Assembly: GCA_027622715.1 (NCBI GenBank)
Contig: JAQBYN010000002.1
Span: 6,682-70,681 of the forward strand
Direction of reading: 5' to 3'
DNA length: 64,000 nt
Source of the DNA: Pseudomonadota bacterium
GTDB lineage: Bacteria; Pseudomonadota; Alphaproteobacteria; SHVP01
The notes below the pieces were generated by a model, which saw nothing but the letters and a program-made list of their open reading frames with translations, did not search any database and was not told where the DNA came from. Each line of letters opens with the position of its first letter. The stretch's first letter is position 1. The position numbers and the translations under genes are program-made. Of this stretch, positions 30,524 to 49,075 are shown piece by piece.

Positions 30524-31618
30524 CGCCTGTCTCCTCTCATGAAGAACAGGCTAACTTCAAATCGGGGACAATTCAGGGGGGCACGTCACACTCAACCTTG
30601 GTGATTGGTGACCTGCTGGGGTACGCGGCTCCACTAACCGGTCAGATTCCAATGGCCGGGGGGAGAGTAGTGGATGAAGGAGGTCGACGTGGCGTTGTTT
30701 ACGATCAAAGTCCCGAAGCAGCGGCATTTGACCGGTGGCAGCATGAGCAATTTGAGTTGGTGGAAAGGGAATTTGCGAATGTCTGGCGAGAAGCACTCGA
30801 AACGCACGATTTGAACGAGATCGCTCGCTCACTCCGCAAGTTTGGCATTGACGGAAAATCCTTTGAGTCTCTGGGTGCCATCGCCGCAGAAGCCGAACGC
30901 TTACTTGACCCCAATGATCGGACCTTTGGGCCACTAAGCTTCGCGGTCAATGCTATGGGCGTCCCGCGTAATTACCATTCACGTATCAGCGAAAGGTGGA
31001 AGGGATTGGGTAAACCCTCGCTCAAGGCATTTTCTCCCTACGCCGCGTTCGTTTCCAAAGTGGAGTTGTTCTTTCAAATTGCATTGGGAGCGAGTCAGAT
31101 ATCTTCTGATCGCCCGTCGAACCGCCTAGATATTGCCTACCTATACTATCTGCCGTTTTGCCACCTGTTCGTTTCCTCAGACCGATTACATCAGCGTTGC
31201 GCTACTCATTTTCTCCGAGAGAATCAGAAGTTCGTTTGGGGTCAGGAACTAAAGGCCGACCTAGCGCGGCTGCAGTCCCACTTCTTGTCGCTTCCGGAGG
31301 CCACAAGGGATGAGGGAATTATGCGGTTTGCTCCCCGCCCGCCGACTTCGGGCGACTTCCTCACATCGAAACTTTGGGATCACATATTTGGAGCCGACTA
31401 CTGGCGTGACGAGGAAGTTGTCTCGCCGGAATCTATGAATCCAGCTCAATCGAAAAAGTTGGTGGATCAACTCATCAAGTTCAGCGAGGCGCCGGCCGCA
31501 CCGAGCCAAAGTCTAGCGGGGGAACCTGACGCGATATCGGTTGCCCGCCATGTTAGGAAGAAGAGAGGTTCTTGGTGGCAACTCCCGAAGGATTTTGAGC
31601 CAGACCAGAAATGATCTC

Positions 31619-33436: not shown

Positions 33437-33582
33437 GAGCCTGTCCTAGGTGAGGGCCGGGAATATATGGCGGCTTTGGTGCACTGCACAAGGCGCGCGA
33501 CGGCGAATTGCTCGAAACTGCGCCGTGTGGCGAGACAAGCCGGGCGCGTGGCAGCTATGTTGGCCGTCTTTCACGCGATTTC

Positions 33583-34791: not shown

Positions 34792-35990
34792 GCGATTCAG
34801 AAACCCGCCGCTACACGTTGGCGCTTCTACTGGCGCTGACGGGTACTTCGGCATTCTCCCTGCAGTTCTTTGTGCCGGCGATGCCTGCGCTGGTCGGGAT
34901 TTTCGAGACGACACCGGCGATGGTGCAACTGACCCTGACTCTGTTCTTGGCGGCTTACGGAATCTTTCAAGCCATCTATGGCCCGCTGTCGGACCGGTTC
35001 GGGCGCAAGCCGGTACTCGTCGCGGCCATTACAATTTACATCGCCGGATCTTTTCTCGGCGCGGCGGCGCTTAGCATCGAGATGGTGATCATTGCCCGTG
35101 TCCTGCAGGCGGTCGGGGCTGCGGCGGGTTTCGTATTGGTGCCGGCGATCGCCCGCGATGTTTACGGGCGCGACGGCGCGCCGCGCGCGATGGGTTACAT
35201 CAGTATGACCAACGGATTCATTTCGGCGGCTGGTCCGTTGGTCGGCGGCTTAATTCACCAATATGCCGGATGGCGTTACGGCCTGATGGCGACCGGGGCG
35301 CTTGGCGTCACGATGTTGCTCTTCACCGTGCTCTATTTGCGCGAGAGCGGCACCGTTATTCGGCAGCGCGTCGCAATCGCGGTCTTAGCGCGGGGATATG
35401 CCGCGCTGGCAAAGACCCGCGGGTTCATGGGCTACGTCTTGTCCGTCGCGTCGGTCAACGGTGTTTTTTATGCGTTTCTTGCCGGCGCTGCGTTCGTCGC
35501 GATCGAGAACCTTGGCGTATCGCCGTCGGGTTTTGGGTTGTTGATGGTTCCGGCTGTCGCGATGTTCATGACCGCCTCCTTCTTCAGCGACCGGTTGGCG
35601 CGCCGGATCGGCACCACCCGGGTCATTCTCATTGGTACGCTCTTCACGGCGACCGGCGCCGTTGGTTTGCTCGTGGTCTCATTGGCCGGACACCAGAGCG
35701 TCACGGCATTGCTGATCGCCAGCGCCTTTATGGGCTTGGGCAACGGTCAAGTCCTGCCGGCGTGCATTTCCGAAGCGGTAAGCGTCGAGCCTCGGTTGGC
35801 AGGGACAGCATCGGCGTGGCTGGGCGTCAGTCAGATGGCGGTGGCGGCAGCCGCCAGCCAGATATATGGGTTCATCCATGACGGGACGACGCTCCCGGTT
35901 GCTCTATTAATGACAATCCTCGCAGGGGGCGCCCTGGGGGGTTGGGTTCTGATCGCCCGACGCAACGTTGCACCGGCGACCAGCGCGTGA
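34788..35990 (+). CDS. Bcr/CflA family MFS efflux transporter 2
   Basis: YGPLSDRFGRKPV, ARVLQAVG, AIARDVY; ATGA overlap. Confidence 0.9.
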   Translation: MSDSETRRYTLALLLALTGTSAFSLQFFVPAMPALVGIFETTPAMVQLTLTLFLAAYGIFQAIYGPLSDRFGRKPVLVAAITIYIAGSFLGAAALSIEMVIIARVLQAVGAAAGFVLVPAIARDVYGRDGAPRAMGYISMTNGFISAAGPLVGGLIHQYAGWRYGLMATGALGVTMLLFTVLYLRESGTVIRQRVAIAVLARGYAALAKTRGFMGYVLSVASVNGVFYAFLAGAAFVAIENLGVSPSGFGLLMVPAVAMFMTASFFSDRLARRIGTTRVILIGTLFTATGAVGLLVVSLAGHQSVTALLIASAFMGLGNGQVLPACISEAVSVEPRLAGTASAWLGVSQMAVAAAASQIYGFIHDGTTLPVALLMTILAGGALGGWVLIARRNVAPATSA

Positions 35991-36044
35991 TCGCTGCGGC
36001 GAAAGGACTACTTTGCCCTTGGATCATTGCCTAAAGTCCCCGCG

Positions 36045-37250
36045 ATGCTGAACGCGCCGCCCGAACACCGCTACACCTTGATCTTGATGCTGACGATTAA
36101 CGCGGTGTCGATCGTGGCGATGCAGTTCATCGTGCCGGCGATGCCTGACCTCGTCGGCGAGTTCGCGACAACGCCCGCCATGGTCCAGCTCACGTTGACA
36201 ATGTTCATGCTGGGCTATGCGGTATTTCAGATCGCTTACGGCCCGCTGTCCGATCGGTACGGTCGCAAAGGCGTGGTGATGTGGGCGACGCTCGTTTTTA
36301 TCGCGGGCTCATTTCTTGGGGCCGTGGCGCCGTCGATCGAAGTGCTGGTTATCGCGCGTGTCCTGCAGTCGGTGGGTGCGGCGGCCGGCTTTGTTCTGCC
36401 GCCCGCGGTCGCGCGCGATATTTACGGTCACGACGGCGCGCCGCGCGCGATCGGTTGGATCAGCATCAGCGCCGGTCTCGCGGCATTATCGGCGCCCTAT
36501 TTTGGCGGACTCATCCACGAAACCGCGGGATGGCGCTGGGGTATGGGTTTTAACGGTGTTCTCGGGATTGCTATTTTGGTGGCTTGCGGTTTGTTGCTGG
36601 CAGAGAGCCATCCGATCGCACGGCGACAGTCCGTGGGTTTCGCTGGTTTGGCACGCGGTTACGCTGCCCTGGCGCGCTCGCGGCGCTTCATGGGTTATCT
36701 ATTGGCGACGGCCTTCGTGAATGGCGCGTTCTATGCGTTCTTCGCTGGCGGTACTTTTGTGGCAATCCAGATTCTCGGCCTGTCGCCGTCGCAATTCGGC
36801 TTGCTGACCATTCCCGTTGTCGCGCTATTCTTGCCCAGCGCCTATCTCAGCGTGCGCATGGCCGCACGCTTCGGGTCGACCCGGATCATTGCGCTTGGCA
36901 CCCTCACGACTGCGGCGGGGTCGATTGGATTGTTGTTTGTCGCGTTGTCGGGCAACGTAAGTGTGCCCGCGATTCTGGTCGCTAGCGCCCTATTAGGCTG
37001 GGGCAACGGTCAAGTGATCCCCAATGCGACCGCGGCTGCCGTCAACCTATTTCCGAAACTTGCGGGCACAGCGTCCGCCAGCCTCGGTACGGCCCAAATG
37101 GGCATGGGGGCGGTGGCGAGTTTGCTGTTCGGATTGTTGCATGACGGTACTTCAACCCCGATGGCGGCGCTGATGGCGGTCATGGGTCTCGCCGCCGTGC
37201 TGTCGTGCGGGCTGATCATAGCCGCACGCCGCCGTCCCGCCGTGGCGTAA
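36045..37250 (+). CDS. Bcr/CflA family MFS efflux transporter 3
   Basis: YGPLSDRYGRK, ARVLQSVG; close paralog of transporter 2. Confidence 0.9.
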   Translation: MLNAPPEHRYTLILMLTINAVSIVAMQFIVPAMPDLVGEFATTPAMVQLTLTMFMLGYAVFQIAYGPLSDRYGRKGVVMWATLVFIAGSFLGAVAPSIEVLVIARVLQSVGAAAGFVLPPAVARDIYGHDGAPRAIGWISISAGLAALSAPYFGGLIHETAGWRWGMGFNGVLGIAILVACGLLLAESHPIARRQSVGFAGLARGYAALARSRRFMGYLLATAFVNGAFYAFFAGGTFVAIQILGLSPSQFGLLTIPVVALFLPSAYLSVRMAARFGSTRIIALGTLTTAAGSIGLLFVALSGNVSVPAILVASALLGWGNGQVIPNATAAAVNLFPKLAGTASASLGTAQMGMGAVASLLFGLLHDGTSTPMAALMAVMGLAAVLSCGLIIAARRRPAVA

Positions 37251-37275
37251 CTTGATCGGTAAAAAAGGAGGCGAC

Positions 37276-38217
37276 ATGACATATCTCGTGACCGGCGGCA
37301 CCGGGTTTATCGGCTCTTGGGTGGTCAAGTCGTTGCTGGAACGCGGGCACAAAGTTGTCGCCTTCGACCTGGTGCCCGGACGTCACGCCCTCGATCCCGT
37401 GGTCGGCGAGCGGGCCGATGAAGTGACGATCGTGCAGGGCGATTTTACCCAGATGCACCGCGTGCTCGAAACAGTGCGCGAACACAAGATCACCCACATC
37501 GCGCATATTGCCGCCGCTGGCCTCAATTTGTGCAATGCGAACCCGGCGCATGCCGTTCATGTCAACGGTGTCGGCTTTGCGAGCATGCTCGAGGTCTGCC
37601 GCACGATGGATATCGAGCGGATGGTGTGGGCCAGTTCGGCGGGCGTGTTCGGCGGCAGCTGGGGGAGCAAAGCGGTGCCCAATGACGCCCCGTTCCAACC
37701 GCGCAACGTCTACGCCGGGCTCAAGGTCTTGGGCGAAACGCTGGCCGCGCAGTATCACGCGACCTATGGGACCGACGTGATCGGCCTGCGCTACACTTTC
37801 GTTAACGGACATGGCATGCCCAATCATCAAGGCGGCCAGATGATCCGCGAACTTTGCGAAAAGACCGCGCTCGGTCAGCCCGCGCAGGTGCCGTGGGGCG
37901 AAGATTCGCCCGATTGGCTGTGGGGCGGGGACGCGGGCGAGGCGACCGCCTTGGCGCTTGAAGCGGCGCCGACAAAATCGCGGGCCTTTAACGTGCCGGG
38001 CGATCACGCGCCGATGACCCGCGCGGTCGAATACGTGAAGTCACTTTTGCCCGACGCCGACATCACGCTGAAGGCGGGCAAGATGGGCTTCAACCGGTTC
38101 GACGGGTCGGTCACCGAGAAGGAAATCGGCTACAAGCCGAAGTGGACCATGGAAATGCAGCTGCGCGAACGTATCAACCGCGTGCGCCAAGAACACGGAT
38201 TGCCGCTGGTCGGGTAA
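37276..38217 (+). CDS. NAD-dependent epimerase/dehydratase (extended SDR)
   Basis: AGGAGG RBS; VTGGTGFIG, ASSAGVFG, YAGLK. Confidence 0.9.
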   Translation: MTYLVTGGTGFIGSWVVKSLLERGHKVVAFDLVPGRHALDPVVGERADEVTIVQGDFTQMHRVLETVREHKITHIAHIAAAGLNLCNANPAHAVHVNGVGFASMLEVCRTMDIERMVWASSAGVFGGSWGSKAVPNDAPFQPRNVYAGLKVLGETLAAQYHATYGTDVIGLRYTFVNGHGMPNHQGGQMIRELCEKTALGQPAQVPWGEDSPDWLWGGDAGEATALALEAAPTKSRAFNVPGDHAPMTRAVEYVKSLLPDADITLKAGKMGFNRFDGSVTEKEIGYKPKWTMEMQLRERINRVRQEHGLPLVG

Positions 38218-38248
38218 TCTCATCGCCACCTCGGAACCATCGAAGACA

Positions 38249-39457
38249 GTGACGGTGCGCAAGCCGCCGGTCATTTTCTTAGTCACCGTGACGGCCGCGG
38301 GCATTTTCGCGACCAACATGTACGTCCCATCGTTGCCGGCGATCGCCATTGACTTAGCGGCGAGCGAACGCGCTGTGCAGTTCACGATGACCGCGTTCCT
38401 GATCGTTTTCGCGGTCTTTCAGCTGGTCTATGGCCCGCTGGCCGACCGCTACGGGCGCAAGCGGATCATGCTGGGTGGCTTGACGATATTTATGATCGCT
38501 AATGTCATCGCCGCGAGCGCGCAGTCGATTGAGTGGCTGTTGGTCGCGCGTGTCCTGCAGGCGGTTGGCGCATGTGCGGGTCTGGTGATTAGCCGCGCCA
38601 TGGTGCGAGACACCTACGAGCGAGGCGAAAGCGCCCGTATCATGGCCTATCTCGGCATGGGGTCGGGCGTATCGTCGTCCGTTGCGCCGTTGCTCGGCGG
38701 TGCGCTGCAGGGATGGACGGGCGATTGGCGCTCCAGTTTCGTCTTCATGAGCGTCTTCACGTTGGGCCCGATGCTGGTGCTCGCCCTTACGGTGCGCGAG
38801 ACGTTACGCCGGGAAGACGCCGCGCGAGGCGGACTCGGCGGGATGGTGCGGGATTATTTTTCTCTATTGAGGACGCCGGAGTACATGTTGTTTTCGTTGG
38901 GCGCGGCCATGATGAACGCCACGTTCTTCGCGTTTCTGACGACCGCGCCGTTCATTTTGATCAATGTCGTCGGGGCGTCACCCGAGCGCTTGGGCGTCGT
39001 GCTGCTCTACATCACCACCGGATTTTTTGTCGGGAACTTGGTGGTTTCTCGAATCGGCGCGCGGTTTCCGCTTGAACGTATGATTCTCGGCGGGAGCACG
39101 CTTTGTTTCGCGGGGGTCGCGATCTTCACAGTGCTGGCGCTTGGCGGCGCGCGGAGCGAAGAGGCGATCGCACTGCCGATGTTGTTGTTCGGTTTAGGCA
39201 ACGGTTTCGTGCTGCCGCCATCGAGCGTGATCGCGGTCAGCGTCCGACCGCAGGTCGCTGGGACTGCATCCGCGCTATATGGGTTCAATGCCTTCGGACT
39301 TGGTGCGCTCGGCACCGTCGTCGCCGGCCTAATCTCCAATGAGACTCAGGTGCCTTTGGGGTTCGCAATGATGACGATGACGGGGATGGCGGTCGTCTTC
39401 TTTGCAACCGGCACCATAATCACGCGCCGACGAGACGTCGCTAGATTACGAGGTTGA
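38249..39457 (+). CDS. Bcr/CflA family MFS efflux transporter 4
   Basis: TNMYVPSLPAIA, YGPLADRYGRK, SRAMVRDTY, AGTASALYG. Confidence 0.92.
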   Translation: MTVRKPPVIFLVTVTAAGIFATNMYVPSLPAIAIDLAASERAVQFTMTAFLIVFAVFQLVYGPLADRYGRKRIMLGGLTIFMIANVIAASAQSIEWLLVARVLQAVGACAGLVISRAMVRDTYERGESARIMAYLGMGSGVSSSVAPLLGGALQGWTGDWRSSFVFMSVFTLGPMLVLALTVRETLRREDAARGGLGGMVRDYFSLLRTPEYMLFSLGAAMMNATFFAFLTTAPFILINVVGASPERLGVVLLYITTGFFVGNLVVSRIGARFPLERMILGGSTLCFAGVAIFTVLALGGARSEEAIALPMLLFGLGNGFVLPPSSVIAVSVRPQVAGTASALYGFNAFGLGALGTVVAGLISNETQVPLGFAMMTMTGMAVVFFATGTIITRRRDVARLRG

Positions 39458-42170
39458 ACAAGCTGCCTTGTCCACCGGCAAATGCGCTCGCGTTGTTACT
39501 CGCGTTGAACGAAATGGATTGCAGCCGCTGTAGCGCCGCTTGCATCGACGATATTTGATCGAGGAGGCGCTGCGGTGGTTGAGGTGGGAGCTCGAACTCG
39601 GGGTCCGGGCCCTCGGTCTTAAGGCGGAACGCTTTCTTGATGGTCGAACTCGCGAATTCGAGCAATGTCACAGCATCCTCGACAGCGCTCTCCGTCAGAA
39701 GGTTGATGTCGCTGGTCAGACCCAGACCGAAGTTGGTCTCGACAAAGCCCTCGCTGCCATCATCTTCAACCTCACCGAAAAGTACTTCGGGGCGCAAGCC
39801 AATGCCCGACAATGCGTCACGTCCTTCCGGGCCGGCGATCAATTCGATCTTATGACCGTTGAGTGCACTGACCCGGAGGAATCGCCCGGTAATGTCGCCA
39901 TCGATGAACCGCGCGGTGCCTTCGCCGCCAGAGCCGATCGCGTTGCGGAGTTTGAATGCGAGGAAACCATAGGTATCGTCGTCGTCGATCGTGATTTGTT
40001 TTCGCGGTCCGTTATCGACGGAGACATAGAAATACTGGCCGGGCCGGATCGTGCTAACGCTGGTGATCGTATCGGAGGGATCGGGGGGCACTTCACCCGT
40101 CGGGAGACCCATCCGCGACAACACGTTCGTTCCGTTGGCGTCGAAAGCGATCGACGACCCGCGTTGATCGAACCCGCCACCAAACTGGTGGCGCCACGTT
40201 TCGTTGAGGGTCGCATCGAACTTGATCACGAAAGCGTCGGTGATGCCGGTCGATGTCTCGCCGCCCAAAGTGCCGGCGGTTTCGCCAGTGACGTAGACCT
40301 CTTCGGTCGTCGGATCGACGGCGACGCTGAAGGCGCGATCGCCGACCGCGGTACCCATGAACGTGCCAAACGTGACCGCGCCATCCGCGTTGGCAAGTTT
40401 GGCCACGAACCCGTCGGTGTCGCCAGCGTGGGCCGTGACCGGCGTTGTCCCGCCGAAGAATGCGGTATTCGAGGTGTAGCCGCTGACGTAGATGTCGCCG
40501 TCGCTATCGACGGTCAGGCCAGTGACGGCACCATCGCTGCCGAGCGTGCCGCTAAACTCCCAGTCCTGCGCGGTCGCGTCGCCGTCGGCATAGCGCCGAA
40601 CGAACCCGACACCATCGTCAGTTCCGGCAAGCAACACGTTGCCTGACCCGTCGACCGCTACGGCGGTGTGCTGCTCATCGCCAGCATCGCCAAATTGTCG
40701 GCTGTACACAAAGGAGCCGCTGCTGTCGAGTTTCGTGACGAACGCGTCGTCCCCGCCGCTATACCCCTCGCCGGGAGCAATCTCGGAGCGGGTCAAACCG
40801 GCAATGAATATTTCGTTGCTGCTGTTGACGGTCAGGGAGACCGCAACATCGTCCAAAAAGGGGCCCGCTTGCCGAGTCCATTGCTCTTGCCCGACGCTGT
40901 TGAATTGGGTGACAAAGGCGTCAAGGTTGCCGCCGAAGGCGTTGGCCGTGAGTTCGCCGCGCACCTGGCCCGTGACGATAACGTTGTCGTTGCTATCGAC
41001 TGCAACGGCAAAGCCGGCGCCGTCTACAGTTGCGCCAAGACGTCGGGTGAACTCGAGAGTGCCGGCGGCGTCGTACTTGTTTAGGAACACATCGCTGTTC
41101 TCGGGATCAACATTTTGCGTGCCGAGATCGCCGGCGGTTTTCCCAACAACATACACCGCGCCGGTGCTGTCAACGGCGACCCCACGGGCGTCGTCGCCCT
41201 TATCGGTCGTATCGATCTGATTGTAGAAAACCTCGGTCGGATTGGCGGTCACGAGATCGTCGATCTTGGTAACGAAGCCACCGCCCGATGGCCCCTGACC
41301 GCGCAGGCCGGCGACGTAGACCGCGCTCGATTCGGTTGCCGCGGCAGCACTGAGGGTCGCGGTTTCGCCGAAACCAACATCGATACGGAACCCGTATTTA
41401 TTCTCGTCGTAGCGCTCGGTGTGTAGCTGGGTCGCAATGCCTGCGTTGACCAACTCGGGATTCACGTAGGCTGAAATATTGTCCAGCGTGTAATCGTTCG
41501 GATCTGCGCTGACTGCGCTCAATGTAATTGTGACCGAACGGACGGTGGTTCCATCATCGGTTTGGACGGTGAATTGGTCTGTTGGGGTTAGTCCCGGTAT
41601 CGGATCGTTGCGGTTTTCCAGAATGACCGCCCCGTTGAAGCGCGGCGCGCTTTCGTCCTGAGGCAGGACAATCGACGAATCGAGGTCGGCCTCCAATATT
41701 CCGGTGACCAGCGAGATAGTGTTGTAATTCGCGCCGTTGACAAAGGTTTCGAGTTCGGCGACCCGAGTCTGGAATTTGCTGTCCACCAGCGTCGACAACA
41801 GCTTGCCCTGCGTCGTCTGGGCATACTTTGCGATATCCAACATTTCATTGACCGCTTTGTAGGCGGCGAAGAGCGATTTCGAATCGTCGTCCAGGTCGAC
41901 GCGGTCGAACAGCGGATCCTTCGGATCGATCAACGCTGCCTGCGAAAACACCCGTTGCTCGAGGCTTTTGTCGGGGACCGTCTGACGCAGCTGCCAGGGC
42001 GGAATAACGGTTTGTTCGCGGGCCGCGATCAGCCGGCCGATCTCACCGTTGCGCAAAACCGCCGTGCGCACAGCCGCCGACTGTCCACCGCCAGCAGCGT
42101 AATAGTTGCCGATGACGTTGAAGTCGAAAAAGAGCGGCTGATACCTCGCGAACGAGGACGAGAAGACCAT
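39441..42170 (-). CDS. FlaEY-like flagellar-associated protein with SBBP beta-propeller repeats
   Basis: 909 aa, no Sec signal; helical N- and C-termini; repeated GVAVDSxGxVYVxG...DAFVxKxDxxG units; sigma54 and ftr-like sites upstream. FlaEY resemblance is from recollection, not a search. Confidence 0.65.
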   Translation of the reverse strand: MVFSSSFARYQPLFFDFNVIGNYYAAGGGQSAAVRTAVLRNGEIGRLIAAREQTVIPPWQLRQTVPDKSLEQRVFSQAALIDPKDPLFDRVDLDDDSKSLFAAYKAVNEMLDIAKYAQTTQGKLLSTLVDSKFQTRVAELETFVNGANYNTISLVTGILEADLDSSIVLPQDESAPRFNGAVILENRNDPIPGLTPTDQFTVQTDDGTTVRSVTITLSAVSADPNDYTLDNISAYVNPELVNAGIATQLHTERYDENKYGFRIDVGFGETATLSAAAATESSAVYVAGLRGQGPSGGGFVTKIDDLVTANPTEVFYNQIDTTDKGDDARGVAVDSTGAVYVVGKTAGDLGTQNVDPENSDVFLNKYDAAGTLEFTRRLGATVDGAGFAVAVDSNDNVIVTGQVRGELTANAFGGNLDAFVTQFNSVGQEQWTRQAGPFLDDVAVSLTVNSSNEIFIAGLTRSEIAPGEGYSGGDDAFVTKLDSSGSFVYSRQFGDAGDEQHTAVAVDGSGNVLLAGTDDGVGFVRRYADGDATAQDWEFSGTLGSDGAVTGLTVDSDGDIYVSGYTSNTAFFGGTTPVTAHAGDTDGFVAKLANADGAVTFGTFMGTAVGDRAFSVAVDPTTEEVYVTGETAGTLGGETSTGITDAFVIKFDATLNETWRHQFGGGFDQRGSSIAFDANGTNVLSRMGLPTGEVPPDPSDTITSVSTIRPGQYFYVSVDNGPRKQITIDDDDTYGFLAFKLRNAIGSGGEGTARFIDGDITGRFLRVSALNGHKIELIAGPEGRDALSGIGLRPEVLFGEVEDDGSEGFVETNFGLGLTSDINLLTESAVEDAVTLLEFASSTIKKAFRLKTEGPDPEFELPPQPPQRLLDQISSMQAALQRLQSISFNASNNASAFAGGQGSLFNLVI

Positions 42171-42210: not shown

Positions 42211-42226
42211 TGCAAACAATGAGCCA
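42211..42226 (-). promoter_or_regulatory. sigma54 (-24/-12) promoter of the FlaEY-like gene
   Basis: TGGCTC-ATTGT-TTGCA on the minus strand (GG-N10-GC), 40 bp upstream of the ATG. Confidence 0.7.
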
Positions 42227-42441: not shown

Positions 42442-44022
42442 ATGGCCCCTGGCGAACCCGCTGCGATCCCGTTTGATATCTTGCGTTCTCCTAAACGGGC
42501 CCGCGATAAGATCAAATCGTTGCAGGACCTCGCGGCGATCTCCGCTGCGCTGAAGGCGCGGGGTAAGACCATCGTTCTCGCCCACGGCGTGTTCGACCTG
42601 GTCCATATGGGGCATGTCCGTCATCTGGAGGCCGCCGCCGCGGAAGGCGACGTCCTTATCGTGACGATTACCCCTGATGAATTCGTCAACAAGGGGCCGG
42701 GGCGCCCGGTTTTCACTGGAGGTCTGCGCGCCGAAATGCTCGCGGCGCTGGGCTGCACGGACTGGATCGGCGTGAACGAATGGTCGAGCGCTGAGCAATT
42801 GCTCGAACTCGTTCGTCCGGACGTCTACGTCAAAGGCTCCGACTACTCCAACGAGGGCGAGGACCTCACCGGCAAGATTCGGATGGAGCGGGAAGCCGTC
42901 GAGCGGCACGGCGGCCGCGTCGTCTATACCGACGACATCACTTTTTCCTCGTCCTCGCTGATTAACCGGCACCTGAACGTCTTCGAACCCGACGTGATGG
43001 AGTATCTCAACGGACTCGACAAGGCGGCGCATTTGGAAAGCGCTCTTGGCGCGCTCGATCGCATTAAAGACATGCGCGTGCTGCTAGTCGGCGAAGCGAT
43101 CATCGACGAATATCTGTACGCGAAGCCGATGGGGAAGTCGGCGAAAGAAAATATCATCGCGTCGCGCTACTCGGGCCGCGAGGTTTTTGCTGGTGGCGTC
43201 ATCGCCGCGGCAAATCACGTCGCCGACTTCGTCAAGGATGTCGAAGTCGTCACCATCCTCGGCGAACGAGAATCCTACCAAAGCCTCATCCGCGACACGA
43301 TCCGTGACAACGTAACGATCCACAGCCTGTATCGCCCCGGCCTTCCGACCATTCGCAAGAGCCGATATGTCGACCCCGGGCACATGCGCAAGCTATTCGA
43401 GGTGTATCACTTCGACGACACCCCGTTGAACGGGCCGATCGAGAAACAACTATGCGACATGATCGGGGATCGGGCGCGTGATTTCGATGTTGTGATCGTC
43501 ACCGATTTTGGTCACGGCATGATGACGCCGCGCGCCATTCGAACCACCATCGAAACCGCGCCGTTCTTGGCGGTCAACGCACAGAGCAATAGTGCTAACC
43601 TCGGCTACAACATGGTCACCCGCTACAACCGCGCCGACTATGTTTGCATTGACGCGCCAGAGGCACAGCTAGCGACTGGCGACCGGTTTTCCGACATCGA
43701 AGACGTCATTACCGACGGCCTCGCCCATGCGATTGATTGCGATCGCATTGCTGTGACGCACGGCCAAAATGGCTGCGTCACGTACGACCGCCAGCAAGAT
43801 GTGCGGCGTGTCCCGGCTTTTACCCGCCAAGTTGTGGATACCGTCGGCGCGGGCGATGCATTCCTCGCGGTGACATCGCCGGTGGTGGCCGCTGGCGCCG
43901 ACATGGAGGTCGCCGGCTTCATCGGCAATGCCGTGGGCGCGCTGAAGGTTGGCATCGTTGGGCACCGCCAGTCGGTGGAAAAGATTCCGGTCCAGAAATA
44001 CATAACAACGTTGTTGAAGTAG
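42442..44022 (+). CDS. Bifunctional cytidylyltransferase-like + PfkB kinase (RfaE/HldE-like, reversed domain order)
   Basis: N-terminal HGVFDLVHMGH and VKGSDY; C-terminal GEAIIDEY and VVDTVGAGDAF. Confidence 0.9.
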   Translation: MAPGEPAAIPFDILRSPKRARDKIKSLQDLAAISAALKARGKTIVLAHGVFDLVHMGHVRHLEAAAAEGDVLIVTITPDEFVNKGPGRPVFTGGLRAEMLAALGCTDWIGVNEWSSAEQLLELVRPDVYVKGSDYSNEGEDLTGKIRMEREAVERHGGRVVYTDDITFSSSSLINRHLNVFEPDVMEYLNGLDKAAHLESALGALDRIKDMRVLLVGEAIIDEYLYAKPMGKSAKENIIASRYSGREVFAGGVIAAANHVADFVKDVEVVTILGERESYQSLIRDTIRDNVTIHSLYRPGLPTIRKSRYVDPGHMRKLFEVYHFDDTPLNGPIEKQLCDMIGDRARDFDVVIVTDFGHGMMTPRAIRTTIETAPFLAVNAQSNSANLGYNMVTRYNRADYVCIDAPEAQLATGDRFSDIEDVITDGLAHAIDCDRIAVTHGQNGCVTYDRQQDVRRVPAFTRQVVDTVGAGDAFLAVTSPVVAAGADMEVAGFIGNAVGALKVGIVGHRQSVEKIPVQKYITTLLK

Positions 44023-44028
44023 GGCGCT

Positions 44029-44661
44029 ATGGCAGTCGATTTCTCGAAACAAAATCTCTCGGCGTATTTTGCGACGCTTGGTGCGATGGATCGTCGAATT
44101 GTTGCGACAGATGAAACCGGCGCACGGCTTGATCTGGCGGCAGTCATGGGCGCGGCCATGGAGCGGGCGCAGCTGACCCACGACGCCGGCAAAAAGCTCA
44201 TGTTTATCGGCAATGGCGGGTCTTCGACGGTCGCGAGCCATATGGCCGAGGATTACACCAAGGCGGGCGGTATTCGCGCCATGGCATTCAACGACCCGGC
44301 CTTTCTAACCTGCTTGGGCAACGATCTCGGTTTCGATCAAATATTTGCCAAGCAGATCGAGATGTTCGCGCAACCGGGCGACATGTTGGTGGCGATTTCA
44401 AGTTCGGGAAATTCGCAAAACATTTTGAACGGCGTATTCGCTGCGCAAAAACGCGGGTGTTGGGTGATGACGCTGTCGGGATTCACCCCGGACAATCTGC
44501 TGCGCAACCTCGGCGACATCAACGTTTACGTGCCGTCTAGCGAATACGGTTTTGTCGAGATTGCCCATTTGGCGGTGTGCCACGCGATGCTCGACATTGC
44601 GATGGGCTGGCAAGATCGCGCCGATCCGGAACACCGTTCTTTGAAAGTGGTTTCAGCATGA
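44029..44661 (+). CDS. SIS-domain phosphoheptose isomerase-like (GmhA-like)
   Basis: IGNGGS...ASH, GNDLGFDQIFAKQI, ISSSGNSQN, E..H. Confidence 0.87.
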   Translation: MAVDFSKQNLSAYFATLGAMDRRIVATDETGARLDLAAVMGAAMERAQLTHDAGKKLMFIGNGGSSTVASHMAEDYTKAGGIRAMAFNDPAFLTCLGNDLGFDQIFAKQIEMFAQPGDMLVAISSSGNSQNILNGVFAAQKRGCWVMTLSGFTPDNLLRNLGDINVYVPSSEYGFVEIAHLAVCHAMLDIAMGWQDRADPEHRSLKVVSA

Positions 44662-45656
44662 CGAACAAGACCTGGAACGTTCTTGTCACCGGCGGTGCCG
44701 GCTACGTCGGCAGCGCGCTGGTGCCCAAGCTTCTGGCTGCCGGGCACCGCGTAACGGTTCTGGATTTGTACATCTACGGCGATGTCTTCGCGCCGATCAA
44801 AGGCGATCCGAAGCTCCGCGAGGTAAAAGGCGATTTGCGTGACCGCGCCGCGGTGGCCGATGCCATGCAGGGCTGCGACGCCGTCATTCACCTGGCGTGT
44901 ATTTCCAACGACCCTAGTTTCGAATTGAACCCCGATCTTGGCAAGTCCATCAACTACGACGCGTTTCGCCCGCTGGTTCGGGTCGCCAAAACCGAAGGGG
45001 TTCGCCGCTTCATCTACGCGTCGTCGTCGAGCGTCTACGGCATCAAGGACGATCCCGAAGTAACCGAGGACCTGCCGCTCGACCCACTGACCGACTACTC
45101 CAAGTTCAAGGCGATGTGCGAAGACGTGCTGGCTGAGGAGCGCGAACCCGGGTTCACCACGCTTATCATCCGGCCCGCCACGGTGTGCGGCTACGCACCC
45201 CGGTTGCGCCTTGATCTGACCGTCAACATCTTGACCAACCACGCGATCAATAACGGCAAGATAACCGTTTTCGGCGGCGCGCAACGCCGCCCGAACATCA
45301 ACATCGAGGACATGACCGATCTCTATGTCAACTGTCTGCAATACGAAGACGCGGCGATTGACGGCAAGATTTTCAACGCCGGTTTTGAGAACCACAGCGT
45401 CGCGGAAATTGCAGAGATGGTCCGCACCTCGGTCGGCAATGGCGTCGAGGTCGTGACTCAGTCGACCGACGACATGCGCTCCTATCACGTCTCATCGCAG
45501 AAGATTCGCGATGAACTCGGATTTGTTCCAGTGCATACGATTGAAGATGCGGTGGACAGTCTGATTGCCGCGTTCAAAACCGGGCAGGTGGCCGATCCAA
45601 TGGCGAATCCGCTCTACTACAACATCAAAACAATGCAGGCGATAGATTTGGCATGA
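44658..45656 (+). CDS. NAD-dependent nucleotide-sugar epimerase/dehydratase
   Basis: VTGGAGYVG, HLACISNDP, YASSSSVYG, YSKFK, RLRLDLTVN. Confidence 0.92.
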   Translation: MTNKTWNVLVTGGAGYVGSALVPKLLAAGHRVTVLDLYIYGDVFAPIKGDPKLREVKGDLRDRAAVADAMQGCDAVIHLACISNDPSFELNPDLGKSINYDAFRPLVRVAKTEGVRRFIYASSSSVYGIKDDPEVTEDLPLDPLTDYSKFKAMCEDVLAEEREPGFTTLIIRPATVCGYAPRLRLDLTVNILTNHAINNGKITVFGGAQRRPNINIEDMTDLYVNCLQYEDAAIDGKIFNAGFENHSVAEIAEMVRTSVGNGVEVVTQSTDDMRSYHVSSQKIRDELGFVPVHTIEDAVDSLIAAFKTGQVADPMANPLYYNIKTMQAIDLA

Positions 45657-46288
45657 CCTTGCTTCTCGGAATCGATTTCGATAATACGATTGTCAGCTAC
45701 GACGCGTTATTCGCGCGGCTCGCAATCGAGGCGGGCTACATTGACGATGTACCGTCCGGCGGAAAAACTGCAATCCGCGACGTGGTGCGCGCCGCGCACG
45801 GCGACAAGGCGTGGCAATTGCTGCAAGCCGACGCCTACGGTGCCCGCGTGAGCGAAGCATTGCTAAGCCAGGGTTTCTCGGCCTTCGTTTCCAGCGCCCG
45901 CCGGTTGGGGGTTCCGCTGGTCGTCGTCAGCCACAAGTCAGTGTTTTCGCATGTTGCCGCCGGCGGCCCGAATCTTCGTTACGCCGCGCTGGCCTGGATG
46001 CGGGCGAACCGGTTCTTTGAACCCGGCGGGCTTGGCTTCGGCGTTGATGACATCTATTTCGAAGGGACGCGGTGCGAGAAGGTGGCGCGCATTCGAGAAC
46101 TCGGCTGCACCCACTTTGTCGATGACCTTCCCGAAGTCTTCGCGGAAAAATCCTTTCCCAATGGTGCGATGCGTATCTTGTACGCCCCGACCGGAGACCG
46201 TGCGGACGGATCCGCTGACGCCGTTGTGAGCGATTGGTTCGACCTACGCGATCTTCTCTTCGCCCATGCCGAAAGAGCCGTCGCGTAA
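45653..46288 (+). CDS. HAD-superfamily phosphatase
   Basis: GIDFDNTI (motif I), VVSHK (II), K and FVDD (III/IV). Confidence 0.85.
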   Translation: MTLLLGIDFDNTIVSYDALFARLAIEAGYIDDVPSGGKTAIRDVVRAAHGDKAWQLLQADAYGARVSEALLSQGFSAFVSSARRLGVPLVVVSHKSVFSHVAAGGPNLRYAALAWMRANRFFEPGGLGFGVDDIYFEGTRCEKVARIRELGCTHFVDDLPEVFAEKSFPNGAMRILYAPTGDRADGSADAVVSDWFDLRDLLFAHAERAVA

Positions 46289-47301
46289 ACGAGCTGTCGC
46301 AGATCGCTGAAGTTGCCCGCGCATTATGCGGCGGCACGGTGGGCGGCTTGGAAGAGATCAATGGCGCCGGCAATCATCGGGTCTACCGCGTTGACGGCAG
46401 TAACGGATCACGTTTTGCGCTCAAGACCTACTTTGCCGGCGGCCATGATGGCCCGCAGCGTTTGAGCGCTGAGTTCAAAGGCCTCACCTATATGTGGCGC
46501 GAAGGATTGCGCGTTATTCCCGAGCCAATGGCGGCGGACCGTGAAGCGCAGTGTGCCCTGTTCGGATGGATCGAAGGCGACCCTGTAACCAAACCGAGGC
46601 CGGTCGACATCGATGCGGCCAGCGACTTCATCCGCGCGCTGCGCGATCTGGCGCGGCAGCCTGACTCCGCGGAATTACCACTTGCCCGCGAGGCATGCTT
46701 GTCGCCGGACGAGTTGCATCGGCAGATTGTCGCACGCCGGGCACGGTTGGCGCGGGAATCCGCATTTCGCGGCGATCTCGCCCTGTTCTTGCGCGACACA
46801 TTTGACGACACGTTGCATGTCAACTGGGCCAAAGCCCGGCGCGGACTTGCTGCCGCGGGGATTCCTGCCGGTAAAGACCTGCCGGTCGAACACCGGACGC
46901 TGTCGCCGTCGGATTTTGGATTTCACAACGCCGTCCGCGCTGCCGACGGCACCCTGATTTTCTGCGACTTCGAATATTTCGGTTGGGACGATCCGGTCAA
47001 GCTGGTTGCGGACTTTGTTCTTCACCCCGGAATGGCCCTGAAACCGCGCCTCGCCGACCGATTCGAGAAAAACGCTTCAGCGATATTTGCCGGCGATCCA
47101 GCTTTCGCCGATCGTTTGAAGCTGTTGAAGCCGCTTTATGCACTGCGCTGGGCCCTCATTACATTGAACGAGTTCATTCCCGAGCGCTGGGCGCAACGGG
47201 CCTTTGCCCACGGCGAACGCGATCGCAATGCAGTGCTGGGGCAACAACTTGCCAAGGCCGAAGGCTTTGTCTCTCGCGTTCATGAGGAGATCGCCGCGTG
47301 A
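46285..47301 (+). CDS. Aminoglycoside-phosphotransferase/kinase-like protein (start codon uncertain)
   Basis: GAGNHRVYRV, FALKTY, LSPSDFGFHN, FCDFEYFGWDDP. Confidence 0.8.
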   Translation, partial: VNELSQIAEVARALCGGTVGGLEEINGAGNHRVYRVDGSNGSRFALKTYFAGGHDGPQRLSAEFKGLTYMWREGLRVIPEPMAADREAQCALFGWIEGDPVTKPRPVDIDAASDFIRALRDLARQPDSAELPLAREACLSPDELHRQIVARRARLARESAFRGDLALFLRDTFDDTLHVNWAKARRGLAAAGIPAGKDLPVEHRTLSPSDFGFHNAVRAADGTLIFCDFEYFGWDDPVKLVADFVLHPGMALKPRLADRFEKNASAIFAGDPAFADRLKLLKPLYALRWALITLNEFIPERWAQRAFAHGERDRNAVLGQQLAKAEGFVSRVHEEIAA

Positions 47302-48134
47302 CTCATGAGGCACACATTCGGGTTGTCGGCGACGACCTCGACGAACGGTCATTGGCGCTGCGGCGCCTTGTTGTGCGCGGCCTCGACGGTGGCAAACGCG
47401 GGCATATGGGATCGGCCTTCTCGCTGATTGAAATGCTGCGCGTTCTCTATGACGACATTCTGCGCTTCGACCCGAAGAACCCGACTTGGGCCGACCGCGA
47501 CCGCTGCATCTTGAGCAAAGGGCACGGCTGCCTCGCGCTCTACGCCATCCTCGCCGATAGGGGCTTCTTTCCGGCGGCCGAGCTCGACCGGTTTTGCCAA
47601 TTCGACGGCATGCTTGGCGGCCACCCCGAGCGCGCCAAAGTTCCTGGGGTCGAAGCGTCGACCGGTGCACTAGGCCACGGGTTGTCGATCGGTCTGGGAC
47701 AGGCTTTGGCAATGCGCCTGCAAAAGCGCGACTCACGCGTTTTCGTGATCATGGGCGACGGCGAAATCAACGAGGGATCGGTTTGGGAGGCTGCGCTGTG
47801 CGCAGGCAAACACCGGCTCTCGAATCTGGTGGCCATGGTCGATTACAACAAACTGCAATCCTATGACCGAACCAGCATCGTACAGGACCTTGAACCGCTT
47901 GCCGATAAATGGCGCGCGTTCGGTTTTGACGTACGCGAGGTCGACGGCCATGACGTCGATCAGTTGCACCGCGTTCTTTCTAACGTACCGTTCGATAGCG
48001 GCAAGCCGTCGGCAATCATTTGCCACACCGTGAAGGGCAGGGGCATTGCCGTGGCGGAAGGCAATCCCGAATGGCACCACAGATCCAAGATCAATGACGA
48101 CGAAGTCGCCGCCATGTACGCCGAGCTGGAGTAG
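47298..48134 (+). CDS. Transketolase N-terminal (TPP-binding) subunit
   Basis: GHMGSAFS, DRCILSKGH, STGALGHGL, GDGEINEGSVWEA...N, HTVKGRG. Confidence 0.93.
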   Translation: MTHEAHIRVVGDDLDERSLALRRLVVRGLDGGKRGHMGSAFSLIEMLRVLYDDILRFDPKNPTWADRDRCILSKGHGCLALYAILADRGFFPAAELDRFCQFDGMLGGHPERAKVPGVEASTGALGHGLSIGLGQALAMRLQKRDSRVFVIMGDGEINEGSVWEAALCAGKHRLSNLVAMVDYNKLQSYDRTSIVQDLEPLADKWRAFGFDVREVDGHDVDQLHRVLSNVPFDSGKPSAIICHTVKGRGIAVAEGNPEWHHRSKINDDEVAAMYAELE

Positions 48135-48136
48135 CT

Positions 48137-49075
48137 ATGCGTAAAACAAGCCTCGATTGCGTTTACGAACTTGCGCGGCGCGACCCACGCGTTGTGTTCA
48201 TCGGCTCCGATCTCGGTGCCGGCACGCTCGACTCGTTCAAAGAAGAGATGCCCGAGCGTTTCTTTATGGAAGGCGTGACCGAACAAAACATTATTGGCAT
48301 GGCCGCCGGCCTGGCGATGGAAGGCTACATCCCTTACGTCAACACGATCGCGACTTTCATCACCCGTCGTTGTTTCGAGCAGGTCGCGGTCGATTTGTGC
48401 CTTCATAACTTGCCGGTACGTCTCATCGGGAATGGTGGTGGTTTGGTTTACGCGCCGCTTGGGCCGACGCATCTCGCCATTGAAGACATCTCGATCATGC
48501 GGTCGCTCCCGAACATGACCGTCGTGGCGCCGGTCGATAAAGAAGAGATGGCGCGCTTTGTGCCCCAAACGCTCGATATGCCGGGTCCGGTTTACATTCG
48601 CTTGGCAAAAGGCGGCGACCCGATCGTCTCGCGCGCCGAAAATGGATTCACGGTCGGCAAGGCCATCTTGATGCGCGACCCAGGTGATATTCTGCTGGTT
48701 TCAACCGGTGTCATGACGAACCGCGCGTTGGACGCGGCGGCGGCGCTCGAAGCCACCGGCGGTCTGCGCTGCGGCGTGCTGCACATGCACACCGTTAAGC
48801 CACTAGACGACGCTGCATTGCTTGATCTTGCCGGCAAGGTCCGCGGGATTGTCACCGTGGAAGAACACACGCTGGTCGGCGGCCTAGGTAGTGCGGTCAA
48901 CGACCTACTCGGCGACCGGCTGGGCCGGCGCGCGCCGCCAGTCTTGCGTCTGGGCATTCCCGATCGATTCCCAGATAAGTACGGCACACAAGACGACCTG
49001 CTCGGCTACTACGGGCTCCAGCCCGATGCTATTGCCAGCTCCGTCAGAGAGTTTGCCTCGGTTCATCTGCGCTAG
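48137..49075 (+). CDS. Transketolase C-terminal subunit
   Basis: EQNIIGMAAGLA, GPTHLAIED, GPVYIRL, TVKPLD, TVEEH..GGLGS. Confidence 0.93.
   Translation: MRKTSLDCVYELARRDPRVVFIGSDLGAGTLDSFKEEMPERFFMEGVTEQNIIGMAAGLAMEGYIPYVNTIATFITRRCFEQVAVDLCLHNLPVRLIGNGGGLVYAPLGPTHLAIEDISIMRSLPNMTVVAPVDKEEMARFVPQTLDMPGPVYIRLAKGGDPIVSRAENGFTVGKAILMRDPGDILLVSTGVMTNRALDAAAALEATGGLRCGVLHMHTVKPLDDAALLDLAGKVRGIVTVEEHTLVGGLGSAVNDLLGDRLGRRAPPVLRLGIPDRFPDKYGTQDDLLGYYGLQPDAIASSVREFASVHLR

Follow-up and report, generated by a model that had tools for sequence, protein, structure and literature searches.

A probable FlaY-type flagellin polymerisation factor, with a seven-bladed beta-propeller between family-specific modules, in an uncultured marine alphaproteobacterial lineage

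Results

The gene belongs to the FlaY/FlaEY family

The gene described here probably encodes an orthologue of FlaY (formerly FlaEY), the flagellin polymerisation factor of alphaproteobacteria, and we put the probability of this reading at about 0.78. It lies in a stretch of 64 kb (the window) and was found exactly where a first-pass annotation, made from the sequence, had placed it (39441..42170, minus strand, ATG start, 909 aa). The peptides quoted in that annotation map to residues 198, 228, 714, 737 and 869. The features are collected in Table 1.

Homology searches returned 596 homologues at E <= 1e-3. Among the best 120 of these 596, all but P0111 and P0113 carry the Pfam family PF27198, named 'FlaEY_3rd' in the Atlas, and most also carry PF06739. 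Membership of the window's protein in PF27198 was read through homologue P0002, which is 99% identical over 100% of the length and has a precomputed PF27198.1 match, and through the precomputed matches of the other homologues. A Maricaulis homologue, P0094, matches the window's protein with an E-value of 3.7e-91, and two of its relatives, P0331 and P0356, bear the UniRef name 'Regulatory protein FlaEY'. The link to Caulobacter FlaY runs through this Pfam family name and these two UniRef names, which also bear out the likeness to Caulobacter FlaEY that the first-pass annotation had pointed out. Caulobacter crescentus FlaY itself (NP_420277.1) shares the PF27198 label with P0002 and with nearly all listed homologues. 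It is of the same size class (~900 aa), and there too N- and C-terminal modules flank a beta-propeller.

Searching 1.84 billion proteins with a profile restricted to the N-terminal region retrieved 533 cluster representatives, and most of the best 150 of the 533 are about 860-1040 aa long. The C domain is also present in 332 of the 377 stored N-domain proteins. The 45 stored N-domain matches shorter than 720 aa are fragments, and none of them is a propeller-less form with both the N and the C domain complete. An N module, a seven-bladed propeller and a C module, together about 900 aa, are the rule in this family. Conservation of the gene on this scale is far more than chance would produce.

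Table 1. Position and basis of the features in the window.
Feature	Position	Strand	Basis and remarks
flaY/flaEY-family gene	39441..42170	-	909 aa plus stop; ATG start; ORF and translation
Residues 1-33: disordered N-terminus	42072..42170	-	pLDDT < 50 for 1-18, 20-22 and 26-33 (AlphaFold2)
Residues 34-94: low-confidence helices, PPW motif (P58, W59), linker	41889..42071	-	Alignment and AlphaFold2
Residues 95-146: antiparallel helical hairpin, weakly flagellin-ND1-like	41733..41888	-	AlphaFold2 helices 95-117, 120-124 and 126-146
Residues 152-275: first small beta/alpha domain with LDNI..IN-type motif	41346..41717	-	AlphaFold2 and alignment
Residues 281-681: seven-bladed SBBP beta-propeller	40128..41330	-	Pfam SBBP, CylK match, 28 AlphaFold2 strands
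Residues 692-815: second small beta/alpha domain, weakly FliD D2/D3-like	39726..40097	-	AlphaFold2, profile search, Foldseek
Residues 827-898: two long C-terminal helices	39477..39692	-	AlphaFold2 helices 827-853 and 867-898
TGGC-N7-TTGC motif	42212..42226	-	42-56 nt upstream of the ATG; one of 2 exact matches in the window
Sugar-nucleotide cluster	42442..49075	+	Divergent from flaY; Pfam and NCBIfam

Domain architecture

The AlphaFold2 model of the 909-aa protein has a mean pLDDT of 86 and a pTM of 0.77. The disordered N-terminus, a putative flagellar type III export region, includes a conserved FD..L..YY motif at residues 15-24. It is followed by a PPW motif that is nearly invariant in the family alignment. 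The claimed helical N-terminus was recovered in part: the helices 95-117 and 126-146 are confident, while those within residues 18-52 are predicted with low confidence only. A covariation ladder (99-149, 102-143, 110-137 and 116-129) runs along the hairpin. At the other end of the chain, the helical C-terminus is present in the model as helices 827-853 and 867-898. The two beta-rich segments noticed earlier are real small domains in the model, with one common strand-strand-helix-strand-strand-strand order. The first is formed by strands 199-205 and 210-216, helix 229-242 and the strands of 248-275, the second by strands 713-718 and 724-727, helix 734-745 and the strands of 751-779. We propose, from the model, that the N- and C-terminal helices and these two domains would form a cap-protein-like scaffold.

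Covariation was also found between the two ends of the protein. The strongest N-to-C pair, 107-844, scores 1.59 compared to a maximum of 1.09 in a control that preserves relatedness; two further N-to-C pairs exceed this control marginally and the remaining pairs do not. The pair 107-844 links the ND1-like hairpin with the CD1-like C-terminal helix region.

The propeller

The annotation's count of about seven SBBP-type repeats agrees with the model, where residues 281-681 contain 28 strands, i.e. 7 blades of 4. Pfam SBBP (PF06739) matches three stretches of the protein (E 8.4e-15), and 6 clear blade motifs were found by regular expression. The propeller of the alkylating enzyme CylK is matched both by PDB sequence search (E 5.7e-36 over residues 330-520) and by Foldseek (E 1.4e-19). 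The whole-model fold search returned propellers only: CylK, Photorhabdus lectins and the B12-binding lipoprotein BtuG. The sequence and fold match to SBBP propellers such as those of CylK and the LipL53-family lipoproteins is clear over this region, but CylK and the LipL53-family proteins are devoid of the FlaEY N and C modules. The protein scores 119 bits against the LipL53 family, for which the cut-off is 400 bits, and has neither lipobox nor signal peptide.

Conservation is highest in the propeller (mean 0.57 vs 0.33-0.52 elsewhere in the protein), and the invariant motifs of the propeller are kept across very different habitats.

Likeness to FliD and flagellin

The Pfam scan of the whole protein at E <= 1 found only SBBP, Pepco and NHL, and no FliD, flagellin or rod family; FliD_N and FliD_C (PF02465 and PF07195) as well as Flagellin_N and Flagellin_C were unmatched at this threshold. 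More sensitive comparisons of single segments gave weak matches. The profile of the C region has FliD of Campylobacter jejuni as its best PDB match (9gsx chain W, E 0.0026), followed by FliD 6sih chain A (E 0.005). Foldseek with the C-region model again ranked 9gsx chain W first, at E 0.034. Among the 40 matches listed in that search, 11 are bacterial FliD, FlgK or flagellin, including the FliD entries 5fhy, 5xlj, 5xlk, 6sih and 9m6i at E 0.16-0.56, and no match reached E <= 1e-3. For the hairpin profile (residues 95-146) the best PDB match is flagellin 9hpz chain A (E 0.021). In hhalign comparisons with flagellins, the hairpin region gave E-values of 8.9e-4 and 1.5e-3 (probabilities 23% and 17%), and residues 814-852 aligned with flagellin 170-208 (E 0.0063, probability 6%). 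The hhalign comparisons with Escherichia coli FliD were not significant (E 0.15 and 0.2).

As for the resemblance to axial proteins claimed earlier, two segments show it weakly; three of the five segment profiles gave no flagellar PDB match, namely the first beta/alpha domain, which had no significant PDB sequence match at all, and residues 1-96 and 800-909. The part of the claim that describes a propeller inserted between N- and C-terminal modules with weak flagellin- and FliD-like features is upheld by the profiles, hhalign, the model and Foldseek together. Overall, outside the propeller the resemblance to FliD and flagellin is weak and marginal, but it recurs.

With FliD (HAP2; C. jejuni structures 6sih and 9gsx chain W) the protein has in common terminal helices flanking small beta/alpha domains and, presumably, a role in helping flagellin to polymerise at the distal end. 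However, a 400-residue seven-bladed propeller takes the position that D3 has in FliD, and all similarities to FliD are below conventional significance. In comparison with D1 of flagellin and FlgL, the hairpin and the 'L.LL.G' turn that follows it are aligned to the ND1 helix of flagellin and the 'FNG..LL.G' turn of that helix, and the C-terminal D1 helix is matched at its start by residues 814-852. Flagellins differ by their conserved D0 termini, which are absent here, and these local alignments have probabilities of 6-23%.

Composition and export signals

The signal peptide is absent, as the first-pass annotation stated: the Kyte-Doolittle mean over 19 residues does not rise above 1.27, and there is one K/R in the first 12 residues. 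Pfam scanning and inspection of the sequence revealed no membrane segment, autotransporter barrel or lipobox, and domain scans found no DNA- or RNA-binding domain. The protein contains no cysteine. This holds for 306 of the 318 full-length family members, whose Cys content is 0.006% compared to 1.07% in 784 neighbouring ORFs; in the background, 6 of 72 ORFs of at least 700 aa are free of Cys. The Cys-free composition of the family fits that of exported proteins.

Gene neighbourhood and upstream motif

Among the 54 ORFs of the window scanned with Pfam, none is a flagellar gene. Neighbourhoods were compared across 46 full-length loci of the family, scoring canonical flagellar genes within 10 kb. 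Such genes adjoin the flaY homologue in 8 loci; in 7 of the 46 these include basal-body genes (FlgI, FlgH, FlgA, FlgF/G, FliX, rod-binding; also FliM and FliL). Three flagellin genes adjoin the homologue in L022 and likewise in L049. In 11 further loci the gene immediately downstream is weakly FliL-like. L022 is the sister of the window's clade. Nonulosonic-acid or PseB/PseC-like genes adjoin the homologues in L019, L023, L024 and L049. Flagellin and flagellin-glycosylation genes are adjacent to some relatives, as they are to flaY in the Caulobacter alpha-flagellin cluster. Each synteny group is a single clade, which reduces the flagellar associations to no more than some three or four independent events.

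Unlike Caulobacter flaY, the gene in the window has a non-flagellar neighbourhood and stands beside a heptose-like sugar cluster with HldE-like, GmhA-like, SDR epimerase, HAD-like, kinase-like and split transketolase genes. This cluster adjoins the flaY homologue in 15 of the 46 loci, all of one clade, the window's own; the two may be functionally linked. The remaining 12 loci, some of them on short contigs, show none of the three contexts (canonical flagellar, FliL-like, sugar cluster).

Upstream of the gene is a TGGC-N7-TTGC motif, which we take to be a sigma-54 -24/-12 core. L003, L001 and L002 have the exact TGGC/TTGC core, with a different spacer, in the equivalent position. The putative sigma-54-type core is conserved in the window's closest clade; no enrichment was seen across the whole family. 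In contrast, a passage of PMC3667746 reports that the promoter of flaY in Caulobacter depends on GcrA and CcrM.

Discussion

The idea of the first-pass annotation, a non-FliD filament cap, is sound, and the family has already been described: it was published for Caulobacter in 2023. It agrees with a table row in a 2026 preprint (PMC13277936), which gives FlaY of C. crescentus as 'FliD analog' and cites Kint & Viollier 2023. The protein, which lacks a Sec signal, would be exported in an unfolded state by the flagellar type III apparatus, with the disordered N-terminus as the putative export region. Once exported, a FlaY-type protein would do the job that FliD does in other bacteria, the polymerisation of flagellin. 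FlaY reportedly needs its beta-propeller and binds flagellin; it is also said to be secreted by the flagellar apparatus and to work when supplied from other cells. We infer the site of action, the binding of flagellin and the role of the propeller in the present protein, where the propeller probably carries the flagellin-handling activity.

In a different reading, the protein would be a stably attached, FliD-like oligomeric tip cap whose outward propellers serve mainly as a tip adhesin. The modelled layout, a scaffold with a displayed domain, would allow this, as would the lectin-like fold neighbours of the propeller, and FliD of some bacteria binds host glycans. However, the propeller is the best conserved region and its motifs do not vary with habitat, which is more to be expected of a housekeeping interaction with flagellin than of a variable adhesin. 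The action of FlaY supplied from other cells, as reported in 2023, also argues against a tightly fixed cap. The tip adhesin suggested in the first-pass annotation finds no support, and we consider it improbable. The same propeller raises the question whether the protein is a surface or secreted SBBP protein (lectin, adhesin or enzyme) unrelated to flagellar assembly, with flagellar neighbours by coincidence. Fold matches of the whole model are all to propellers, JGI labels two relatives 'trimeric autotransporter adhesin', and the window's own clade adjoins a sugar cluster rather than flagellar genes. This reading is quite unlikely nevertheless, as the N and C modules are family-specific (533 representatives) and stand under the FlaEY Pfam label, flagellar neighbourhoods recur in two further clades, with three flagellins adjacent in L022, and the protein has neither a signal peptide nor an autotransporter barrel or lipobox.

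The older names point to a cytoplasmic regulator of flagellin gene expression, neither exported nor structural. Besides the UniRef name of the relatives, FlaEY is a 'possible regulatory protein' in a passage of PMC8921679, and flaY 'a putative flagellar regulator' in one of PMC3667746. Work cited in the former passage found that flaE/flaY mutations altered flagellin expression and that loss of the Sphingomonas homologue FlaQ raised fliC expression. Altered flagellin levels in mutants are also expected, however, because an assembly checkpoint responds to a missing cap-like factor. In Caulobacter, control by FlbT and FlaF is such a checkpoint on flagellin levels. Neither a DNA- nor an RNA-binding domain was found, and the near absence of Cys in 318 members, the disordered N-terminus and the FliD-like beta domain fit an exported protein. 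Later literature, as represented by the preprint table, takes FlaY as a FliD analogue. We likewise regard a cytoplasmic regulator as quite unlikely.

More tentatively, FlaY may belong to the FliD cap/axial lineage itself, strongly diverged, rather than be a convergent analogue. It would then possess a D1 bundle (residues 95-146 packed on 827-853) and two FliD-type beta/alpha domains, with the propeller replacing the outermost FliD domain. In the marine clade the gene would have left the flagellar clusters and been co-inherited, under a sigma-54 promoter, with a nucleotide-heptose pathway, of which flagellin or FlaY itself may be the target for glycosylation. We hold this scenario to be possible but rather doubtful.

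To our knowledge, many alphaproteobacteria have no recognisable FliD, and how multi-flagellin filaments are capped and polymerised in them stood as a question until FlaY was described. The ORF in the window extends the FlaY family to an uncultured marine lineage. Genome annotations label such proteins 'SBBP repeat-containing protein', 'hypothetical' or 'autotransporter adhesin', so inventories in which a FlaY-type flagellar function counts as missing are probably in error for these genomes. The present analysis adds the family-wide absence of Cys, the recurrent neighbourhood of sugar-modification genes and the weak, repeated resemblance of the non-propeller parts to FliD and flagellin, the last of which is relevant to the question of kinship or convergence between FlaY and FliD.

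Architecture and membership of the family

P0001, the 909-residue protein encoded by the gene, belongs to the FlaY/FlaEY family; this membership and the architecture of the protein both rest on computed results. The open reading frame proposed in the first-pass annotation was borne out on the minus strand, and the peptides quoted from it were found at residues 198, 228, 714, 737 and 869. The absence of a signal peptide was also confirmed: the peak 19-residue hydropathy mean is 1.27, and no segment is hydrophobic enough to serve as a signal peptide or a membrane helix. The GC content of the gene (0.60) is the same as that of its surroundings. No tRNA, Rfam family or sigma-70-like promoter was found in the region of the gene.

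The sole Pfam match of P0001 is to the SBBP propeller repeats (PF06739, E 8.4e-15); none of the flagellar Pfam families matches it, and the one NCBIfam match, to a family of SBBP lipoproteins, falls below the threshold. A sequence search of the PDB matched the CylK propeller to residues 330-520 (E 5.7e-36). The protein elements listed in the table are those of an AlphaFold2 (AF2) model built on a 60-sequence alignment (mean pLDDT 86.0, pTM 0.77). The propeller is the most conserved region, with a mean column conservation of 0.57 compared to 0.33-0.52 elsewhere.

Features of P0001 (residues) and of the window (nucleotides)
Feature	Position	Strand	Description
N-terminus	residues 1-33		mostly pLDDT <50 (AF2)
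N-terminal helices	residues 18-52		low confidence (AF2)
Helical hairpin	H95-117, H126-146		confident (AF2)
First small β/α domain	residues 152-275		strand-strand-helix-strand-strand-strand (AF2)
Propeller	residues 281-681		28 strands forming seven four-stranded blades (AF2)
Second small β/α domain	residues 692-815		strand order as in the first (AF2)
Two long C-terminal helices	H827-853, H867-898		AF2
flaY-like gene	39441..42170	-	ATG start, 909 aa
Convergent MFS gene	38249..39457		its end and the 3′ end of the flaY-like gene share 17 nt
Four MFS transporter genes	33508-39457	+	same orientation
SDR epimerase gene	37252-38217		between third and fourth MFS genes
IS-type transposase	29412-30233	-	rve, rve_3, HTH_21; beside a GC dip to 0.575 (30001-32000)
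ORF of 338 aa	30598-31614		next to the transposase; no Pfam match
TGGC-N7-TTGC core	42212-42226	-	42-56 nt before the ATG
Divergent sugar-nucleotide cluster	42442-49075	+	conserved beside the flaY homologue in 15/46 loci
 HldE-like bifunctional enzyme			nucleotidyltransferase domain first (reversed domain order)
 GmhA-like isomerase
 SDR epimerase
 HAD-like protein			DxDxT start (DFDNT), judged by eye
 Kinase-like protein			by eye; no Pfam match
 Split transketolase

A search of 5.8 billion proteins returned 596 matches to P0001. Nearly all of the 120 homologues listed have a length of about 900 aa, and these homologues stem from Alphaproteobacteria (marine MAGs, Kordiimonas, Maricaulis and others). 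PF27198, named 'FlaEY_3rd' in the Atlas output (Pfam 38.1), is precomputed along with PF06739 on nearly all of these 120, including one full-length protein 99% identical to P0001, and it is through these labels on relatives that P0001 is assigned to PF27198. The Maricaulis homologue P0094 matches P0001 at E 3.7e-91, and a second search, seeded with P0094, returned two relatives whose UniRef name is 'Regulatory protein FlaEY'. When a profile built from the first 283 residues was searched against 1.84 billion cluster representatives, 533 proteins reached E <= 1e-3, and 292 of them also reached E <= 1e-30. Among the proteins collected in this analysis, 332 of the 377 that carry the N domain also carry the C domain, and no propeller-less form was seen among these 377. 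The 45 proteins shorter than 720 aa are considered fragments because each lacks either the C domain (43) or most of the N domain (2). Longer members were also observed (P0033, 1539 aa; P0082, 1543 aa; P0237, 2007 aa); P0033 and P0082 carry additional precomputed PF17803 and PF17963 domains, so fused forms occur.

Likeness to flagellin and FliD

Profiles were searched against 177,635 distinct PDB sequences. The best match of the N-region profile is a flagellin (9hpz_A, E 0.021), with profile positions 109-163 lying on flagellin residues 87-141, which comprise the ND1 helix together with its following turn. The best two matches of the C-region profile are both FliD (9gsx_W, E 0.0026; 6sih_A, E 0.005), and the FliD matches of this profile fall over the second β/α domain. 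Profiles of residues 165-283, covering the first β domain (best E 0.25), residues 800-909 (best E 0.11) and residues 1-96 (best E 0.37) gave no flagellar match in the PDB. Using hhalign, residues 97-156 of P0001 were aligned with E. coli FliC 79-139 (E 8.9e-4, probability 23%), residues 106-163 with positions 88-145 of six short alphaproteobacterial flagellins from loci L022 and L049 (E 1.5e-3, probability 17%), and residues 814-852 with flagellin 170-208, where the C-terminal D1 helix begins (E 6.3e-3, probability 6%). Comparisons of the family with single E. coli FliD, FlgK and FlgL sequences were not significant (E 0.15, 0.13 and 0.049; probabilities <=1.1%), nor was that of the C-region profile with E. 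coli FliD (E 0.2).

In a fold search with the whole model, propellers dominate and no bacterial flagellar protein appears among the 43 matches listed (ranks 1-50). Residues 690-909 were modelled separately (AF2, pLDDT 83) and searched against the PDB with Foldseek, which gave nothing at E <= 1e-3. C. jejuni FliD (9gsx_W) ranked first at E 0.034, and 11 of the 40 matches listed are bacterial FliD, FlgK or flagellin (9gsx, 5xbj, 5fhy, 5xlj, 5xlk, 6sih, 9m6i, 9atl, 9yh1, 9ygu and 9gnz); one more of the 40, 9u4r, may be flagellar, and 10 belong to phage tail sheaths or baseplates.

Mean-field covariation was calculated for positions 1-283 and 690-909 over 362 sequences (effective number 225). The helical hairpin was recovered as an antiparallel ladder (99-149, 102-143, 110-137, 116-129); the short-range couplings were too noisy for secondary structure to be read from them. 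The top coupling between the N and C regions, 107-844 (score 1.59), joins H95-117 to H827-853 and ranks 12th of all pairs at least 6 residues apart. A broad covariation between the two regions looked convincing under permutation, where no N-to-C pair reached 0.9 compared to nine observed, but was undone by a control that keeps sequence relatedness (N region against 220 propeller positions), where seven pairs did so, with a maximum of 1.09. Since this control nearly matches the observed count, only 107-844 stands clearly above background, 21-745 and 16-751 being marginal. Packing of the terminal helices in P0001 is indicated at the level of sequence.

The likeness to FliD and flagellin is real enough to serve as a lead and falls short of establishing homology. 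Two methods independently arrive at the same FliD, and the elements that align with flagellin occur in collinear order, among them the two that are joined by the strongest N-to-C coupling.

Cysteine content

P0001 has no cysteine in 909 residues. The same is true of 306 of the 318 full-length family members, the others having one (9) or at least two (3). Cysteine makes up 0.006% of the family compared to 1.07% of 784 neighbouring ORFs of at least 200 aa, and 6 of the 72 ORFs of at least 700 aa in this background lack it, the background consisting of longest ORFs that may include some non-genes. Absence of cysteine is a typical trait of proteins that cross the flagellar channel unfolded.

Gene neighbourhoods and upstream motif

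ORFs of the window and of 45 loci that carry a full-length homologue were clustered, and the clusters were named with Pfam and NCBIfam. Canonical flagellar genes occur in 8 of these 46 loci. In seven of them (L019, L022-L025, L027 and L029) the homologue is abutted by a basal-body cluster, comprising genes for a 148-aa unknown protein, a rod-binding protein, FlgI, FliX, DksA, FlgH, FlgA and FlgF/G, with FliM and FliL further along. The eighth is L049, from Oceanicaulis; here, and in L022, three short flagellin genes adjoin the homologue. On the other, upstream flank of L019, L023 and L024, genes of nonulosonic-acid type adjoin the homologue directly; they encode NeuB, a CMP-sugar-type cytidylyltransferase, methyltransferases, a 524-aa TPR protein and a lysozyme-family protein. 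A flank of L049 (7320-9710) carries PseB-like and PseC-like genes. We infer that these flanking genes are of the kinds that make flagellin glycans. The L025 and L029 records are titled 'uncultured Flavobacteriaceae', yet the flagellar cluster beside their FlaY homologue (FliX, FlgI, FlgH and others) is of alphaproteobacterial type, and this FlaY falls together with that of the Micropepsaceae L027 and L028; they are probably mis-binned contigs.

Directly downstream of the homologue in 11 of the 46 loci, from Kordiimonas, Emcibacter-like and Sphingomonadales MAGs, lies a gene for a membrane-anchored protein of 125-176 aa with an N-terminal hydrophobic segment (L030, L033, L035-L038, L040, L046, L048, L050 and L055). 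This protein may bear a weak likeness to FliL: Pfam FliL is touched by 5 of 13 members of its cluster (best E 7.2e-4), and the top two PDB matches of its profile are FliL (6ahq_A, E 0.026; 6ahp_A, E 0.32).

The homologue is divergent from a sugar cluster in 15 of the 46 loci, the window among them, and flagellar genes are absent for 10 kb around it in these loci; none was found among the 54 ORFs scanned in the window. In relatives, the sugar cluster is longer and also contains DegT aminotransferases, methyltransferases and a TIGR04324 2OG-Fe(II) oxygenase. The oxygenase of L005 (1986-2810, minus strand) matches this 'sporadic carbohydrate cluster 2OG-Fe(II) oxygenase' family with 300.7 bits against a cut-off of 150; its cluster, 'unk275', is present in six loci and absent from the window. 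No glycosyltransferase was identified in the window. It is a reasonable guess that the sugar cluster is a nucleotide-heptose pathway feeding glycosylation of flagellin or of FlaY. The 12 remaining loci, some of them short contigs, fall outside the basal-body or flagellin, FliL-like and sugar contexts.

On a quick maximum-likelihood tree, each context corresponds to about one clade, so the flagellar and sugar associations represent few independent events. Context changes once in group A (99% support), once in group C (100% support) and twice in group B. L022 is sister to the clade of the window.

The exact TGGC-N7-TTGC core upstream of the gene, which we take to be the -24/-12 core of sigma-54, has just one other exact match in the window. 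An exact core recurs at this position in all four members of the closest clade (the window, L001, L002 and L003), 39-56 nt ahead of the likely start and with differing spacers. As a family-wide feature the motif was rejected: a relaxed form precedes the homologue in 11 of 45 loci, which is no enrichment over the background of about 0.26 per 450 nt, and the exact core is kept only in this clade. Just upstream of the core, all four carry a TTAACC(N)T element, which in L002 and L003 reads TTAACCAT, presumably a CtrA half-site.

Discussion

The family to which the gene adds a new member is already known, its function having been published in 2023. In that year Kint and Viollier are said to have found that FlaY is secreted by the flagellar apparatus, binds flagellin, depends on a functional β-propeller and can act when donated by other cells; reportedly, they regard it as convergent with FliD. 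PMC8921679 terms FlaEY a possible regulatory protein and cites older work in which mutations in flaE or flaY altered flagellin expression, and PMC3667746 treats flaY as a putative flagellar regulator, with GcrA binding to its promoter depending on methylation. In a more recent preprint (bioRxiv 10.1101/2024.09.25.614892), FlaY is named as facilitating flagellin polymerisation by a mechanism analogous to that of FliD, and the 'non-FliD filament cap' of the first-pass annotation is in substance this published view. Literature searches for PF27198, and for SBBP together with flagellar and alphaproteobacteria, returned nothing.

The core of the earlier interpretation, namely a FlaEY-like flagellar protein that bears a propeller and stands in for FliD, is supported; the tip adhesin offered as its other option is not. 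From the reported behaviour of the family and the composition of the protein, a sequence of events may be proposed. The FlaY-like protein would be made without a Sec signal, its disordered N-terminus would be recognised by the flagellar export gate, and it would travel unfolded, which would explain the lack of cysteine. The helical and β/α scaffold would then dock on the hook-junction or the filament end, where the propeller, the most conserved region, may handle incoming flagellins. What remains novel is that FlaY and FliD may share an ancestor, that cysteine is lacking across the family and that the gene is linked to sugar clusters.
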